From the NCBI GenBank assembly GCA_002780795.1, contig PEUF01000041.1, forward strand, positions 3,826-67,825: 64,000 nucleotides of DNA. Reading direction: 5' to 3'. The notes beneath the pieces are model-generated. The model searched no databases and had not been told where the DNA came from. It saw only the letters and a program-made list of their open reading frames with translations. Source of the DNA: Candidatus Roizmanbacteria bacterium CG02_land_8_20_14_3_00_36_15. GTDB taxonomy: Bacteria > Patescibacteriota > Microgenomatia > UBA1406 > GWC2-37-13. How positions within the stretch are numbered: position 1 is the stretch's first letter; every line of letters starts with the position of its first letter. Shown here piece by piece: positions 14,322 to 57,625 of the stretch. Position numbers and translations under genes: made by a program.

Positions 14322-14426
14322 TACTTCTTAAATGATAAACGGCTCGAATTTTCCCTGTCCGAAGCCTCTGCGGCGCTGGCCGCGAGGGCGGGCGCGGCCA
14401 GCGCCTACCCCGACGATCTCTTTTTG

Positions 14427-14509
14427 TGCCGGGGAGAGGAGTTGAACCCCCACGTCCTTGCGGACACAAGGTCCTAAACCTTGCGCGTCTGCCATTCCGC
14501 CACCCCGGC
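14427..14509 (-). tRNA. tRNA-Leu (anticodon UAG), class II with long variable arm
   Basis: Minus strand GCCGGGG...CAAGG-TTTAGGA-CCTTG, variable arm TGTCCGCAAGGACGT, T loop TTCAACT, acceptor CCCCGGC-A. Confidence 0.9.
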
Positions 14510-17546: not shown

Positions 17547-17635
17547 AGGCGGACTTCGTCTCGCCGAAGCCGAGCCGAATTATTATTATGAATCCCGCCT
17601 TCATCCCGCGAAGCGGGATTTCGGCGAGGCGAAGG
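17547..17635 (-). other. GC-rich structured element between tRNA-Ser and the GIY-YIG start codon
   Basis: Minus strand: outer 15-bp stem CTTCGCCTCGCCGAA / TTCGGCGAGACGAAG (one mismatch) encloses hairpin ATCCCGC-TTC-GCGGGAT and an alternative partner GCGGGATT. Confidence 0.5.
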
Positions 17636-17723
17636 CGGAGGAGGCGAGATTCGAACTCGCGATGACCTTGCGGTCATACAGACTTTCCAGATCTGCGCCA
17701 TAAACCAGCTAGGCGACTCCTCC
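17636..17723 (-). tRNA. tRNA-Ser (anticodon GGA), class II
   Basis: Acceptor GGAGGAG/CTCCTCC, anticodon arm CAGAT-CTGGAAA-GTCTG, long variable arm TATGACCGCAAGGTCATC, T arm GCGAG-TTCGAAT-CTCGC. Confidence 0.9.
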
Positions 17724-25653: not shown

Positions 25654-26976
25654 ATGATCAGTTGTGACTTTGCACCAAATGAGGCTTGGGATGACGCCTG
25701 GATCGCTTTTAAGCTAATCCTTCAACCTTGGAAATGGAAAAAAGGTAAAGAGCTTGATTTAATTAAAGAAATATTATTGCAGAAAATTTATGGATCCTGT
25801 CAGAAGTTTCCTTCCCGCCAGTGCTCGACTTGCGTTGAAAGACCCCAAGATCTCTGCGCTGTCGGGATCCCTCCTTCTTCTGCCACCCATAAATTTTCTG
25901 CAAACTTGTTTCTATCTGGCAGATCAGCACTCAACTATCTACTAAAATCACTCAACTTACCGAAAGAATCCGAGATAATTGTCCAGGGTTTCACCTGCGA
26001 GGCCGTCGTCCTACCAATATTGGCCAATAATTTAAGGCCTGTTTATGTTGATATTGAGACTGAGTCATTTTCCTTTGATCCTATAGATTTAGAAAAAAAG
26101 ATAACTAGCAAAACCCGGACAATCATCCTTCAGCATAGTTTTGGCATAACACCAAAGCACCGAGAAATAATCATTTCCATTGCCAAACAACATCGTTTAC
26201 TGCTAATCGAGGATATAGCACATGGATTTCAAAGTCAAAAGTTAAAAGTTAAAAGTCAAAAGTCTATTTATTTAATGTCTTTTGGCCGGTCCAAAGCCAT
26301 ATCGTCGGTCTTCGGTGGAGCGATTGTCACTAATAATAAATCAATTGCCAGAAAATTAGAATTAATTGAAAAAAATCTACCAAAACCCAATCTTTTTTTT
26401 ATCTTCAGAACTTTAATTTATAAACCGTTATCTATGGTTATTAGATTAACTTACGATTTTTTACTGGGGAAAATTATCCATAAATTAATAAATTTGTTTG
26501 CGATTTTTCCTCCAGAAATCACCAAAAAAGAAAAAAGGGGAGAGTATAGTAGTTTTTTCGATAAAGCATATCCCAATGCTCTAGCGATTCTTTTACTCCA
26601 TCAGTTAAATAAAGTTGATCAAGTTAACAAACAAAGGGCTAAAATATGCCAAGTGTATCAAAGGAAAATCTCAAATCTTAAATCTAAAATCTCAAATTTA
26701 GCATTAAGTCGTTATCCTTTGTTAGTCAAAAATCGGTCACCAATAATAACAAAAGCGCAGAAACAAAATATTTTTCTAGGTAACTGGTACAACCAACCAG
26801 TTGGACCAGCTAGCCTTAATCTCGCTAAAGTACAGTATCAACTTGGCAGTTGCCCAGTAGCGGAGGAAGTTTGTCAACATATTATTAATCTACCAACTAA
26901 TATAACTATAGTAAGCGCTAAACGAATAATCACTTTGATTTTAAATAAGAAAAGTGTAAAGTGTGCGGATTTTTAA
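25654..26976 (+). CDS. DegT/DnrJ/EryC1/StrS family aminotransferase-like protein
   Basis: IEDIAHG and SFGRSKAISSVFGGAIV (PLP-lysine region). Contains one GC-rich insert and two heptamer arrays in frame. Confidence 0.65.
   Translation: MISCDFAPNEAWDDAWIAFKLILQPWKWKKGKELDLIKEILLQKIYGSCQKFPSRQCSTCVERPQDLCAVGIPPSSATHKFSANLFLSGRSALNYLLKSLNLPKESEIIVQGFTCEAVVLPILANNLRPVYVDIETESFSFDPIDLEKKITSKTRTIILQHSFGITPKHREIIISIAKQHRLLLIEDIAHGFQSQKLKVKSQKSIYLMSFGRSKAISSVFGGAIVTNNKSIARKLELIEKNLPKPNLFFIFRTLIYKPLSMVIRLTYDFLLGKIIHKLINLFAIFPPEITKKEKRGEYSSFFDKAYPNALAILLLHQLNKVDQVNKQRAKICQVYQRKISNLKSKISNLALSRYPLLVKNRSPIITKAQKQNIFLGNWYNQPVGPASLNLAKVQYQLGSCPVAEEVCQHIINLPTNITIVSAKRIITLILNKKSVKCADF
25792..25870. repeat. 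GC-rich segment bounded by GGATCC-containing imperfect inverted repeats, in frame in the DegT-like ORF
   Basis: GGATCCTGTCAG ... CTGTCGGGATCC (10/12 complementary). Encodes GSCQKFPSRQCSTCVERPQDLCAVGIP. Confidence 0.5.
26231..26265. repeat. Heptamer array AAAGTYA x5 inside the DegT-like ORF
   Basis: aaagtca|aaagtta|aaagtta|aaagtca|aaagtct. Confidence 0.85.
26666..26700. repeat. Heptamer array AAATCTN x5 inside the DegT-like ORF
   Basis: aaatctc|aaatctt|aaatcta|aaatctc|aaattta. Confidence 0.85.
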
Positions 26977-27119: not shown

Positions 27120-28292
27120 ATGATCATTAAAGAAATAGAAGATTATAAAACCTGGACTAAGTTTTTTAATCAAAACGGTTCGCCGTCGTTTTTGCAATCC
27201 TGGGGGTGGGGAGAGATACAAAAAAAACTGGGTTATAATATCTTGCGTCTAGGCCTTTATGATAAAGATAAACTTACTGCCATCACTTTGGTTGTTAAGA
27301 TTAGAGCTAAAAGAGGCAATTTTTTATTTATTCCAAATGGGCCAATAACACAATCTCAAATCTCAAATCTCAAAACTCAAAACTACATCTCAAATCTAAA
27401 ATCTTATTTCATCAAGCTGGCAAGGAAAGAAGATTTTTCTTTCATAAGGATTGCGCCTATTCTTGAAAACACTCCTGAAAATCAAAAAATATTTAAACAT
27501 TTAAACTTTAAAACCGCTCCAATCTATATGCATGCGGAAACGGTGTGGCAACTACCGTTAACCGCCGCGGTTGAGGAGCGGAGCGGGAAAACCGCGGCGG
27601 TTTATTGCTTGACCGATAATCAGTTGCTTTCAAACATGCGCAAAACAACTCGTTACTTAATCCGCAAAGCGATCCGCGACGGTGTTATTATCGAAAAACG
27701 AACCGATGAAAAAGCGGTTGAGGATTTTTACCAAATTTATCAAGAAACTGCAAAAAGAGAATATTTTGTCCCGTTCTCAAAAAAATATATTAAAGAGGAG
27801 TTTAAGGCGTTTAACAAAACCGGAAACGCAATATTTTTGTTTGGAAAAATAAATAAACAGGCGACGGGTGTTGAGAAGAAAGGGTTCCTGACAGCGCGTA
27901 GCGATTTTTCCAGCCCGCCGCTGGTCGCGAGCACTGACGGGAATGAATTCGAAACAGGCCCCGTCGCCTCAGCACTTATTCTTTTTACTAAATCTACTGC
28001 ATTTTACCATCAAGGCGCTTCAATTCATACCAAGGTTCCGGCTACTTATCTTCTCCAGTGGGAAGCCATAAAAGAAGCCAAAAAACGTGGTTGCTCATTA
28101 TATAATTTTTGGGGAATATATGATGAGAACTCGGGCAGGATGCCCAAAGCCTGGCAAGGGTTAACTCTTTTTAAAACCGGTTTTGGCGGTAAAAAGATTT
28201 GTTATTTGCCCACCCAAGATTATATAATCTCTTCAAGATATTTTTTAACAGTTATCTGGGAAAAACTATTAGCTTGGAAAAGAGTAATATAA
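27120..28292 (+). CDS. FemAB family peptidoglycan interpeptide-bridge peptidyltransferase
   Basis: FLQSWGWGEIQKKLGY N-terminal signature and FYHQGAS in the C-terminal half. Carries three apparent in-frame inserts. Confidence 0.7.
   Translation: MIIKEIEDYKTWTKFFNQNGSPSFLQSWGWGEIQKKLGYNILRLGLYDKDKLTAITLVVKIRAKRGNFLFIPNGPITQSQISNLKTQNYISNLKSYFIKLARKEDFSFIRIAPILENTPENQKIFKHLNFKTAPIYMHAETVWQLPLTAAVEERSGKTAAVYCLTDNQLLSNMRKTTRYLIRKAIRDGVIIEKRTDEKAVEDFYQIYQETAKREYFVPFSKKYIKEEFKAFNKTGNAIFLFGKINKQATGVEKKGFLTARSDFSSPPLVASTDGNEFETGPVASALILFTKSTAFYHQGASIHTKVPATYLLQWEAIKEAKKRGCSLYNFWGIYDENSGRMPKAWQGLTLFKTGFGGKKICYLPTQDYIISSRYFLTVIWEKLLAWKRVI
27352..27403. repeat. Heptamer array AATCTCA x7 inside the FemAB ORF
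   Basis: aatctca|aatctca|aatctca|aaactca|aaactac|atctcaa|atctaaa. Confidence 0.85.
27560..27602. repeat. Perfect 13-bp GC-rich inverted repeat with a 17-nt loop, in frame in the FemAB ORF
   Basis: AACCGCCGCGGTT-gaggagcggagcgggaa-AACCGCGGCGGTT. Encodes LTAAVEERSGKTAAV. Confidence 0.8.
27859..27969. repeat. GC-rich ~110-bp segment bounded by a 10-bp inverted repeat, in frame in the FemAB ORF
   Basis: AGGCGACGGG (27859-27868) and CCCGTCGCCT (27960-27969). AAACAGGC precedes both arms. Confidence 0.7.
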
Positions 28293-28985
28293 ATGAATAA
28301 CAGCTGTACTGCTCTCATTCCTTTTCATAATGAAAAAAAACGTATCCTTAATGTCCTTAATGTCCTCTTCAAGATTGAAACCCTTTCTCAAATCATCTGT
28401 GTTGACGATGGTTCATCTGACAAAACCTATTCTCTTATTAAAAAACAGTGTCCACTAATTACAGTCGTCCGATTAAAAAAGAACATGGGAAAAAGCGCTG
28501 CTGTGGCCGCCGGACTAAGAAAAGTAAGAACCAAATACGTTTTTTTATGCGATGCCGATCTCCATCATCTTAAAAAATCAGAGGTGGAAAGAGCCATTAG
28601 ATCCGCCCTAAAAAGCAGGGTAATCGACTTGCTGATTTTGCGACGTACTCACTCTATCTTCCAAACCAAACTGTCTCGTGGAGATATTCTTTTTTCTGGA
28701 GAAAGAATTATGAAAACTAAAGATTTAATCAATGTTTTTAAAAGCCACCCTAGAAAATACCAACTGGAAATTGCTATTAATAAATACATGATTGATAATA
28801 AGAAGAGTGTTAGATGGCTACCTTCATCGGCTTTAAGCACTTTTAAAATTTATAAGGTCGGCCTATTTTTAGGAACGATGAACGAATGGAAGATGATAAC
28901 CAGTATGTTTACCTATGCCGGTTGGCATGAATATTGGCGGCAGTTTCTACTTTTTTGCCACGAAAAACATTCTAGAATAGCTTGA
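28293..28985 (+). CDS. Family 2 glycosyltransferase
   Basis: ALIPFHNEKKRI, CVDDGSSDKT and CDADL motifs. Confidence 0.7.
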   Translation: MNNSCTALIPFHNEKKRILNVLNVLFKIETLSQIICVDDGSSDKTYSLIKKQCPLITVVRLKKNMGKSAAVAAGLRKVRTKYVFLCDADLHHLKKSEVERAIRSALKSRVIDLLILRRTHSIFQTKLSRGDILFSGERIMKTKDLINVFKSHPRKYQLEIAINKYMIDNKKSVRWLPSSALSTFKIYKVGLFLGTMNEWKMITSMFTYAGWHEYWRQFLLFCHEKHSRIA

Positions 28986-29756
28986 CCAAACCCTTCCTCA
29001 AAATTTTATCAAAACTCTTCCTTAACCAAACAATGGCTAAAACCAGATAAACGATATTTAACAAAAAACTGATCAAAATCTTGTGCCAATCGAGATAACC
29101 CTGCGCCAGAACGAGACGAGCCCCTTCAAAAATATAACTGGTGGGAATAAAACTGGCTATCTTCTGAGCCCAAAGTGGTAAGACCGATAAGGGATAGTAA
29201 ATGGCGGAAAAGGGAGAAATGACTGCCACCGCCGCCCAGGCCAATGTCTGAATCCGCGTCCCCCCTCTTAAAATAAGACCGGCGACTAAGAAACCGACCC
29301 ACCAACCAGTCATAATCAGACATAAAATAAAAGGAATTAAAGAAAATCCGTATACAAAAAAATTATATTTATAAAGAAAAAAAGCCAATACTAAAGCAAA
29401 AGAAAGACTTAAGAAGGCTTTTATCAATCCGATTATAATCACCGACACCATCCATTCGTCTAGATTTAAAGGCGAACAAATAAATTAATCAAATTCTTAT
29501 TCCAGAGTTCTTCTAACAGGTTAACCGTAATTTCATACTGACCTCGCCAAACGATTATCCAAAACAAAATACCGGAAATAATCATGATCATGATTGTTGA
29601 GTTACCACCGCTCATCTTTTTAAAATAACTACCGGTCAACCCCCAGAGTAAAAGATCCATCACCGGCCAGTAGAAAGCGTCGGACATCCTATCTAAGCTT
29701 TGTCTAAAATAGTAAAAATATCTTAGAACCATGGCATAAATTCTTGATGTTTTCAT
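28972..29756 (-). pseudogene. ABC-2 type transporter permease, split by a single-nucleotide frameshift
   Basis: The N-terminal 96 aa end ...NLINLFVRL*. The second frame reads upstream of its ATG as GSPLNLDEW-MVSVIII, so LFV|SPLNLDEW is restored by re-reading one T near 29475. Confidence 0.65.
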
Positions 29757-47631: not shown

Positions 47632-48720
47632 CTACTTTTCTTTTTTAACTCTTTTCAGGATTTTTGAAAAAAGATCTAGAACTTTGAAAAGATTTTTTCC
47701 TTCTTTTTTAATCACTTTTGGTTGTCCTTTCTTAGGAATCAAGGAAAACACCGCTTCGAATAATCCCCCACTTTTTTCTTCCTTGACAAAAAGCTTAGCT
47801 TTAACTAAATCTGGTTCTTTTTTCAGAAAAAAACTAAAGCGTTGAAAAAAACCGCCGACGAGACGGCGGTTATTTTGGGAAAGATTTTTTGAGCTAATCT
47901 CTATTTTGTTTTCATCTTTGAGATTGAAAAAAAATCTCAAAAAATCCTGGGTAGTGATAATACCTAATGGCCGTCGCCGATCATCAACAATAACCACGCT
48001 GCCTATTTCTTTAGCTAATATCAAATTCAAGGCTTCGCTCATCAAATGGATCGGTGTTAAAGTCAGAATATAATTTTTGGCAAAGTTTTTAACCTGGTAA
48101 TGATAAAAATTAATCTTATCACCAACTCGATCGCCTCGACGTTCAACGTTCCTGGGTTTTATTAAATAAGATATTAAGTCATAATAAGTCAATATGCCTT
48201 TTAGTTTTAAATACTTACTAAGCACTAACAGTTTGGAAACTTTTTTTTCTTTGAATAGTGTCAGAGCCCTGGAAACAAGATCATTTTCATAGACCGATAT
48301 CAACAGATTTTTTTTTGTTTTTAAGTAATCGCCGATTTTAATCTTAAATAGCGGGGAATCTTTATTCGCTTCGATTAATCTCCGAGCAGAAATAATACCG
48401 ATAAATTTATCTTGATTGTCAAAAACTGGTAGATAATGTATTTTTGATTCGATGAACAGACGAGCTACTTTATTAATTGGAGTATTTATTTTTATTCTTG
48501 GAGCGTGAAAAAGACAGTTTTCTACTTTGGCATTATAAGGGTATGAGGTTTTAAACAGACAATAATATGGGTTGATTATCCCCAAATATTTATTTTCGCC
48601 GGAAAAAACAAATGCTCCATCATGTGAAGTAGATAGTTTGGCTAAGGCTGAAGATAAGGTATCTTGTGAACTAACTCTAATAATATTTTCATTTTTAATT
48701 ATGTCTTTTAGTCTAACCAT
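47632..48720 (-). CDS. Four-CBS-domain protein with a C-terminal RaiA/HPF-like domain
   Basis: Four CBS repeats recognisable. The last ~90 aa (IEISSKNLS...AKLFVKEEKSGGLFEAVFSLIPKKGQPKVIKKEGKNLFKVLDLFSKILKRV) follow the ribosome hibernation factor pattern. Confidence 0.5.
   Translation of the reverse strand: MVRLKDIIKNENIIRVSSQDTLSSALAKLSTSHDGAFVFSGENKYLGIINPYYCLFKTSYPYNAKVENCLFHAPRIKINTPINKVARLFIESKIHYLPVFDNQDKFIGIISARRLIEANKDSPLFKIKIGDYLKTKKNLLISVYENDLVSRALTLFKEKKVSKLLVLSKYLKLKGILTYYDLISYLIKPRNVERRGDRVGDKINFYHYQVKNFAKNYILTLTPIHLMSEALNLILAKEIGSVVIVDDRRRPLGIITTQDFLRFFFNLKDENKIEISSKNLSQNNRRLVGGFFQRFSFFLKKEPDLVKAKLFVKEEKSGGLFEAVFSLIPKKGQPKVIKKEGKNLFKVLDLFSKILKRVKKEK

Positions 48721-56187: not shown

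Positions 56188-57625
<1,438 letters not shown>

Follow-up and report, generated by a model that had tools for sequence, protein, structure and literature searches.

A gene for a FemAB-family peptidyl/aminoacyl transferase in Candidatus Roizmanbacteria bacterium CG02_land_8_20_14_3_00_36_15 (Bacteria; Patescibacteriota; Microgenomatia) contains two GC-rich palindromic segments that are read in frame with the rest of the protein. The gene lies in a stretch of 64,000 nucleotides of contig PEUF01000041.1 (positions 3,826 to 67,825 of the forward strand; assembly GCA_002780795.1), henceforth called the window, and all positions are counted from its first nucleotide unless another locus (L number) is named. 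A preliminary description of this sequence had compared the segments with Rickettsia palindromic elements (RPEs). Here we report a computational analysis of the two segments, of their relatives elsewhere and of their predicted place in the protein. They are probably copies of two distinct families of small, non-autonomous palindromic repeats, a form of selfish hairpin DNA spread in the AT-rich genomes of Roizmanbacteria-like bacteria in the Candidate Phyla Radiation (CPR).

Two GC-rich palindromes in one FemAB gene

Segment 1 is a perfect 13-bp inverted repeat whose arms, AACCGCCGCGGTT (27560-27572) and AACCGCGGCGGTT (27590-27602), enclose a 17-nt loop, while segment 2 has perfect 10-bp arms, AGGCGACGGG (27859-27868) and CCCGTCGCCT (27960-27969), with 91 nt between them. 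Both agree with the preliminary description, and the terminal arms of segment 2 can be extended to ~16 nt if one indel is allowed. The same description had the short repeat AAACAGGC preceding both arms of segment 2; this holds only loosely, since the copy at 27952-27959 abuts the right arm whereas that at 27855-27862 overlaps the first 4 nt of the left arm. The second copy belongs to a conserved block of family 2 (ACAGG, see below), and there is consequently no clear target duplication. The G+C content of segments 1 and 2 (0.70 and 0.61, respectively) stands out against that of the remaining FemAB gene (0.37) and of the window (0.34), in line with the earlier impression of GC-rich blocks in an AT-rich gene. 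As RNA, segment 1 is predicted to fold at -26.9 kcal/mol (z -3.4) and segment 2 at -54.7 kcal/mol (z -4.9), the entire 126-nt stretch of the latter forming one long imperfect hairpin. GC-rich palindromic segments far exceed the chance expectation: among perfect GC-rich inverted repeats, the window has only four with arms of 9 bp or more, segments 1 and 2 being two of them, and three with arms of 10 bp or more, where composition-preserving local shuffles yield 0.18.

Both segments are in frame within the 390-aa FemAB open reading frame (ORF), as had been claimed, and the peptide stretch spanning an insert junction reads ...LPLTAAVEERSGK... The gene sequence is identical in four independent long assemblies (L131-L134), and 86 blocks of the sequence collection list the protein, so the segments are not an assembly artefact. 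In a variant that is 99% identical, both inserts keep their amino-acid sequence unchanged. The gene is intact and identical in many assemblies; evidence of a non-expressed pseudogene would, according to the preliminary description, have counted against its reading.

Family 1: a small hairpin in unrelated genes

A FemAB gene at locus L040 carries AACCGGGGCGGTTGAGGAGCAAAGCGGGAAAACCGCCCCGGTT at the position that corresponds to segment 2, which puts the loop of segment 1, on a stem altered in a compensatory manner, at the other insertion hot-spot. Metagenome contigs were scanned with this loop plus the stem base, GTTGAGGAGCNNAGCGGGAAAAC (a 23-nt pattern), and the scan returned 50 loci, bringing the total to 53 family-1 copies in ~33 distinct and unrelated flanking contexts; viral contigs scanned for the same pattern gave none. 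As a consensus, family 1 reads AACC-N6-GGTT / GAGGAGCGAAGCGGGAA / AACC-N6-GGTT. Across 32 distinct sequences 96% of the stem cells are paired and 7 of the 13 pairs have changed on both sides, values that none of 500 shuffles matched. The alignment shows that compensatory substitutions in the stem preserve the hairpin while the loop is conserved, the invariance of the loop being partly circular because its pattern was itself the retrieval query. Segment 1 fits the family-1 covariance model at 70.8 bits (E 1.9e-23), and a search with this model recovers the same arms with other loops, in variants whose lengths (34, 46 and 49 nt) are all 1 mod 3 and whose phase is also the same. The variants at L081, L082, L125 and L128 (Table 1) have loops of 8, 17 or 23 nt on AACC-N6-GGTT arms and keep the T-x-x-V phase described below without exception. 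Several occur in one gene or contig (RecJ with two copies, a 2.6-kb contig with four), and near-identical copies are found inside the single short contigs L125 and L128.

Family-1 copies are overwhelmingly intragenic: ~31 of 34 contexts (~91%) fall within long ORFs, and ten intact hosts are recognised by Pfam, namely RecJ, YidC, GT1/GT4, Pyr_redox_2, MreB, MiaA, TsaD, Def, a class-I aminoacyl-tRNA synthetase and DHFR. The host genes remain open and their domain matches are kept. The consensus is open in five of the six frames; nevertheless a single phase, 'A ACC ... GTT', is used in 31/33 coding contexts (binomial p 9e-11 against 2/5), and the phase that contains TGA is used by none of the family-1 copies (P = 0.002). 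In the favoured phase the element reads T-x-x-V-E-E-R-S-G-K-T-x-x-V when the loop runs forward (39 copies) and T-x-x-V-F-P-L-R-S-S-T-x-x-V when it is reversed (12 copies), while the gene-oriented flanks of the copies are constant. The bias towards one phase and the lack of copies in the stop phase argue that the inserts are translated rather than removed, a conclusion that we infer from the nucleotide sequences.

The loop of family 1 shares GCGAAGCGGGA with other hairpins. A second copy of segment 1 was not found in the window by blastn-short, and the family-1 peptide, used as a 48-aa concatenated query, gave 566 candidates with shared words, not one of which reached an E of 10 or less, an uninformative outcome. 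A mini-hairpin with family-1-like arms, AACCGCCG-ACGAGA-CGGCGGTT (47850-47871), lies in an ORF on the minus strand (47632..48720) and is a weak hit of the covariance model (E 0.13).

Family 2: a longer imperfect palindrome

Family 2 is represented by five copies of ~94-113 nt, three of them coding, in differing frames and orientations, and two intergenic. The four that were aligned, segment 2 and the copies in the DegT gene of the window, L005 and L128, share the blocks GGGTG..AGGGxTCCxGACAGCGC, followed by a variable centre, and CxAGCACTGxCGGGAAxGA..ACAGGxCC (nhmmer E 1e-23 to 1e-26). Blastn-short with segment 2 over the window returned weak fragments only, and the DegT copy was recognised via the alignment with L005 and L128. 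The insert at FemAB site 2 of L005 aligns with segment 2 solely as its reverse complement, and the DegT orthologue of L005 is without a copy. As the copies differ in frame and orientation and some are intergenic, family 2 is a repeat at the level of DNA and not a peptide module. The preliminary description had held that a lack of related copies elsewhere in the genome would refute its reading; for family 1 there are at least 50 in unrelated genes, and for family 2 they occur in the DegT gene and in other genomes. The coordinates of the elements and their hosts are collected in Table 1.

Table 1 Palindromic elements, their codons and their host genes
Feature	Position	Strand	Evidence and remarks
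FemAB-family peptidyl/aminoacyl transferase, 390 aa, hosting both elements in frame	27120..28292	+	ORF; Pfam FemAB 8.8e-35 in two stretches; AlphaFold2 pLDDT 86
Family-1 hairpin element (segment 1), 43 nt	27560..27602	+	13-bp perfect stem AACCGCCGCGGTT/AACCGCGGCGGTT, conserved 17-nt loop GAGGAGCGGAGCGGGAA
15 codons, aa 149-163, AAVEERSGKTAAVYC, lacking in insert-free FemAB homologues	27564..27608	+	Low-occupancy alignment columns; beta-hairpin in the AlphaFold2 model
Family-2 element (segment 2), ~113 nt, long imperfect palindrome with variable centre	27859..27971	+	Arms AGGCGACGGG/CCCGTCGCCT; fold; alignment with three other copies; nhmmer E 4.5e-23
~33 codons, aa 247-279, QATGVEKK...NEFET, lacking in insert-free homologues	~27858..27956	+	Limits depend on the alignment; predicted disordered loop
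Second family-2 copy of the window	25785..25895	-	In the DegT gene, in frame, in another frame than segment 2 (..SCQKFPSRQCSTCVERPQDLCAVGIPPSSATH..); nhmmer E 1e-24
DegT/DnrJ/EryC1-type aminotransferase, 440 aa, hosting the second family-2 copy	25654..26976	+	Pfam 5.2e-37 in two stretches
Intergenic family-2 copy	L005 1741-1834		Weaker match (nhmmer E 3.6e-4), just upstream of where DegT starts
Intergenic family-2 copy	L128 654-759
Family-1 variants	L081 3131-3179; L082 5197-5245; L125 3514-3562; L128 907-940, 1900-1933, 2575-2608

Insertion sites and predicted protein structure

In an alignment of 120 FemAB homologues, the nearest of which carry the names Candidatus Roizmanbacteria or Microgenomates, the basal, insert-free protein has ~334-345 aa. 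Compared with it, both segments are insertions, as the preliminary description had anticipated, and both occupy what the alignment identifies as insertion hot-spots of the family. Site 1, after the W-x-L-P-L motif, has extra residues in ~20% of the homologues and site 2, the turn joining the strands ..LFLFGK and YLASALIIFTKS, in ~60%; the inserts range from 0 to ~65 aa and are highly divergent in sequence, with a single open frame throughout the gene in 80/80 genomic loci. Across 81 loci, inserts at three FemAB sites, counted from a length of 10 aa, are richer in G+C than their genes (0.47 vs 0.38, p 6e-5) and far more prone to form hairpins than control segments from the same genes (median z -2.3 vs -0.18, p 2e-5), z being below -2 for 58% of the inserts and 6% of the controls. 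The variation at a fourth site (s80) is that of an ordinary loop and has no hairpin tendency.

Other hairpin families are found in FemAB loops elsewhere (L027, L029, L031, L034, L079 (site s49); L043, L054, L008; proteins P0008, P0012, P0024, P0029). The hairpin ATTCCCGCGAAGGCGGGAAT of other FemAB genes encodes 'VIPAKAGIQ' and on its reverse strand 'MDSRLRGND'; the GTAG-headed insert GTAGAGACG..CGTCTCTAC encodes 'VETRH..SLQ' and is present twice in L054, at separate sites of one gene; and in L034 one hairpin is nested inside the loop of another.

The AlphaFold model of the FemAB protein has a mean predicted local distance difference test (pLDDT) score of 86 and a predicted template-modelling (pTM) score of 0.84. 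It matches the FemX/FemA structures 6snr, 1ne9 and 1lrz with a Foldseek probability of 1.00 and template-modelling (TM) scores of 0.67-0.78, and in the model the FemX/FemA tandem-GNAT fold is retained despite the inserts, both of which fall between secondary-structure elements, in keeping with the surface loops expected in the preliminary description. The arms of segment 1 are modelled as a beta-hairpin (strands at aa 148-151 and 160-163), and segment 2 as a loop that joins strand 237-244 to strand 283-289 and has pLDDT <50 for aa 254-277. Site 2 (27858-27962) coincides with the position of a ~70-residue helical arm in Staphylococcus aureus FemX/FemA (6snr residues 235-303, unmatched in the alignment) and is a naturally permissive position.

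Proposed spread and tolerance of the elements

If the two segments are indeed copies of selfish hairpin repeats, the elements would be transcribed and translated together with their host genes, and copies would persist only where a tolerant surface loop and a harmless reading frame come together. The G+C richness of the elements would make stop codons rare and thereby keep the frames open. In family 1 both arms read T-x-x-V in the phase that is used, whichever the direction of the loop, and could fold into a small protruding beta-hairpin. More speculatively, spread would probably proceed via single-stranded hairpin DNA that is handled in trans by some enzyme. Hairpin loops may be favoured landing sites, a conjecture prompted by the nested hairpins of L034 and by the occurrence of GCGAAGCGGGA both in the family-1 loop and in other hairpins; equally conjectural is the notion that imperfect palindromes may flip in place, which is hinted at by the constancy of the gene-oriented flanks.

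A number of observations weigh against this interpretation. No consistent target-site duplication was found in the 33 family-1 contexts, where flanking direct matches amount to 2 nt in 9/33 and 3 nt in 2/33. The family-1 hairpin measures 43 nt, yet no host loses its frame. Neither a transposase nor another mobilising enzyme turned up, although no transposase screen of the ORFs of the 64-kb window was made. Filled and empty sites were not seen to alternate between near-identical strains, and recent mobility is therefore not established. The window itself has just one copy of family 1 and two of family 2, and most of the metagenome loci have no taxonomic assignment. Compared with intergenic DNA, coding sequence shows no depletion of copies (~91% are in ORFs), which is not obviously the behaviour of a purely deleterious parasite.

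The same data bear on four other explanations. The hairpins could have been made in place, by replication template-switching or snap-back synthesis in tolerant loops, instead of having been dispersed as copies. The same two FemAB loops do gather very different inserts across lineages, the outer arm of segment 2 overlaps the short direct repeat AAACAGGC, intra-strand conversion can keep arms perfect, and this account is at ease with the target duplication and the transposase not having turned up (the latter within the limit just stated). Local generation could not, however, produce an identical loop in MreB, RecJ, DHFR and other genes; the 23-nt pattern of loop plus stem base is exact in ~33 unrelated contexts and at the other FemAB site of L040, and segment 2 shares its conserved blocks with the DegT, L005 and L128 copies at the E values given above. 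As a sole origin it is contradicted, and we rate it as very improbable. Exceedingly improbable is the idea that the segments extend FemAB loops in an ordinary, lineage-specific way, as counterparts for instance of the staphylococcal helical arm, with their palindromy being incidental. Site 2 does coincide with the ~70-aa arm of S. aureus FemX, but the segment 2 insert is missing from most close homologues, is modelled without helices and at low pLDDT, has a folding z of -4.9, and is related at the DNA level to copies in another gene and in intergenic regions, such copies outside FemAB already contradicting the proposal.

Strong GC-rich hairpins within an AT-rich mRNA, one of them encoding a peptide that is predicted to be disordered, could also be absent from the mature protein, as introns, inteins or segments of translational bypass similar to the GC-rich 'byps' of yeast mitochondria. 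Removal or bypass would free the inserts from the constraint of frame, whereas 31/33 coding contexts share one phase, none uses the stop phase and all 80 FemAB loci can be read through in one frame; moreover, no Rfam intron or ribozyme is matched even at E up to 5, and inserts of 15 and ~33 aa are far below the size of inteins and are without their terminal residues. Such a fate seems to us very unlikely. A benefit to the host, through an RNA or DNA structure bound by some factor or through diversification of surface loops, would account for a family-1 loop that is invariant over many metagenomes on covarying stems, for copies that are overwhelmingly in ORFs and in one phase, and for an allele that is stable over many assemblies. 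Nevertheless, the loop is found in both orientations to transcription (39 forward, 12 reverse), so that a loop motif at the RNA level is not preserved; the host genes have no common function; presence is patchy among orthologues, the same loop being occupied by different families; and the invariance of the loop is partly circular, with covariance-model matches having other loops on the same arms. We consider selection for such motifs improbable, and the dispersal of selfish hairpin repeats remains our preferred explanation.

A bolder extension of that explanation, which we regard as rather doubtful, is that the CPR harbour an as yet undescribed superfamily of ultra-small (34-49 nt) AACC-N6-GGTT hairpin elements specialised for coding sequence. 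It would fit the near-exclusive T-x-x-V beta-hairpin phase, the occurrence of either direction without a change of phase (which suggests in-place flipping), the apparent nesting in loops and the absence of depletion in ORFs. If it is true, these would be the smallest protein-coding mobile elements known, and a new route of mobilisation acting on hairpin DNA, or a mechanism of insertion or retention linked to coding, would have to exist.

Comparison with known repeat systems

RPEs are dispersed palindromic repeats that occur in coding and intergenic DNA, are inserted in frame into unrelated housekeeping genes and encode a peptide compatible with the fold of the host protein (PMC10969869; PMC1779305); their length is 100-150 bp (PMC1779305). 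Like RPEs, which have also been reported in Wolbachia, the elements described here are interspersed (53 copies in ~33 contexts for family 1; three coding and two intergenic copies for family 2), form stable palindromic hairpins (z -3.4 and -4.9, with stem covariation in family 1), are in frame in unrelated ORFs, in FemAB at positions that the structural model predicts to be tolerated by the fold, and reside in the small AT-rich genomes of host-dependent bacteria. Unlike RPEs they belong to CPR/Microgenomates and not to Rickettsiales; family 1, at 34-49 nt, is outside the 100-150 range, whereas family 2 (~94-113 nt) is in or near it; and family 1 is set apart by its conserved loop, freely covarying stems, near-exclusive phase and ~91% of coding contexts. 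The RPE-like reading of the preliminary description is accordingly supported by analogy of behaviour, although the lineage, and for segment 1 the length of 43 nt, place the elements outside the RPE family; to speak of a GC-rich counterpart in a different lineage, as was done there, is fair.

Repetitive extragenic palindromic (REP) sequences and REPINs are short (20-40 nt), GC-rich imperfect palindromes with many copies and compensatory evolution of their stems (PMC3116915; PMC3733652; PMC2817692), and REPs are by definition extragenic and have a GTAG or CGTC head (PMC3733652). The REP/REPIN system, which is mobilised by RAYT (Y1 HUH) transposases, resembles the present elements in the short GC-rich imperfect palindrome, the many copies and the compensatory changes of the stems, and GTAG does stand at the head of some inserts in other FemAB homologues (GTAGAGACG...CGTCTCTAC); in contrast, family 1 begins with AACC, family 2 begins with (A)GGCGACGGG, neither having a GTAG/CGTC head, and ~91% of family-1 contexts are intragenic. 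[quoted passage not shown] They are small non-autonomous repeats with terminal inverted repeats and can form in-frame fusions with host ORFs (PMC10969869; PMC2229807). Terminal inverted repeats are likewise present in segment 1 (13 bp) and segment 2 (10 bp), but MITEs typically have a target-site duplication, which is not consistently seen at family 1, and family 1 is several-fold shorter than typical MITEs. The 'nano-elements' of Nostoc, small dispersed repeats (SDRs), are mobile units of tens of nucleotides that insert into or extend hairpins, also within genes, and heptamer tandem repeats are abundant in those genomes. The nested hairpins of L034 and 14 period-7 arrays in the window are reminiscent of SDRs; the lineage and the sequences differ, and we know of no description of a strong coding preference or a single reading phase for SDRs. 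Stable hairpins have also been described in protein-coding genes of the AT-rich mitochondrial genomes of Nematomorpha, where both arms encode conserved parts of the protein (PMC6649704). The segments in FemAB, by contrast, are insertions and not conserved protein parts. Yeast byps are skipped by the ribosome, whereas the phase statistics presented here argue for translation.

Several other identities were considered and rejected. The AAC...GTT ends bear a superficial likeness to attC sites, but the stems are perfect and a cassette context is absent; CRISPR repeats are excluded by the single and dispersed copies; inteins, introns and ribozymes by the size of the inserts, the absence of an Rfam match and the phase bias; and an intragenic terminator was likewise dismissed. 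No Rfam family matches either element at the gathering or at permissive thresholds (E up to 5).

A full-text literature search, the coverage of which is incomplete, found no description of such elements in the CPR, and the in-frame habit of hairpin elements is known mainly from Rickettsia. Protein-coding palindromes have so far been treated as essentially a peculiarity of Rickettsia and Wolbachia, and the same lifestyle in the CPR would be a convergent outcome in small AT-rich genomes, reached with elements of another kind and far smaller size that reside in such core genes as MreB, RecJ, YidC, TsaD, Def and DHFR. In practical terms, the inserts inflate and fragment domain matches and create spurious low-complexity or 'novel' peptide segments, and alignments and phylogenies of CPR proteins can be led astray by them. 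Permissive loops of essential enzymes are marked by the inserts as well, and the strong single-phase rule together with the conserved loop provides testable handles on the spread and tolerance of the elements.

Other features of the window

The period-7 tandem arrays (e.g. 27352-27404, 26666-26697 and 26231-26264) lie in several cases in ORFs with the frame preserved: the FemAB array (AATCTCA)n and the DegT array (AAATCTC)n encode the same peptide, ..ISNLKS.., and DegT also contains (AAAGTCA)n. They represent a second, AT-rich type of in-frame insertion common to neighbouring genes. Two GC-rich hairpins outside ORFs are located directly 3' of tRNA genes on the minus strand, one at 14372-14405 next to tRNA-Leu (14426-14509) and the other at 17560-17628 next to tRNA-Ser (17634-17723). 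The latter contains ATCCCGCGAAGCGGGAT, which resembles the in-frame 'VIPAKAGIQ' hairpin of other FemAB genes and, like the loop of family 1, includes GCGAAGCGGGA. The imperfect hairpin CTTTTTGCCCC...GGGGCGAAAAAG (56820-56860), in a 443-aa open stretch of the minus strand, may be a further in-frame element. Downstream of FemAB, an ABC-2 permease is split into ORFs of 159 aa (28972-29451, minus strand) and 96 aa (29466-29756, minus strand) in the window and likewise in L132 and L133, whereas L131 and L134 have one undivided gene of 261 aa; the split reflects either polymorphism within the population or a step towards a pseudogene.

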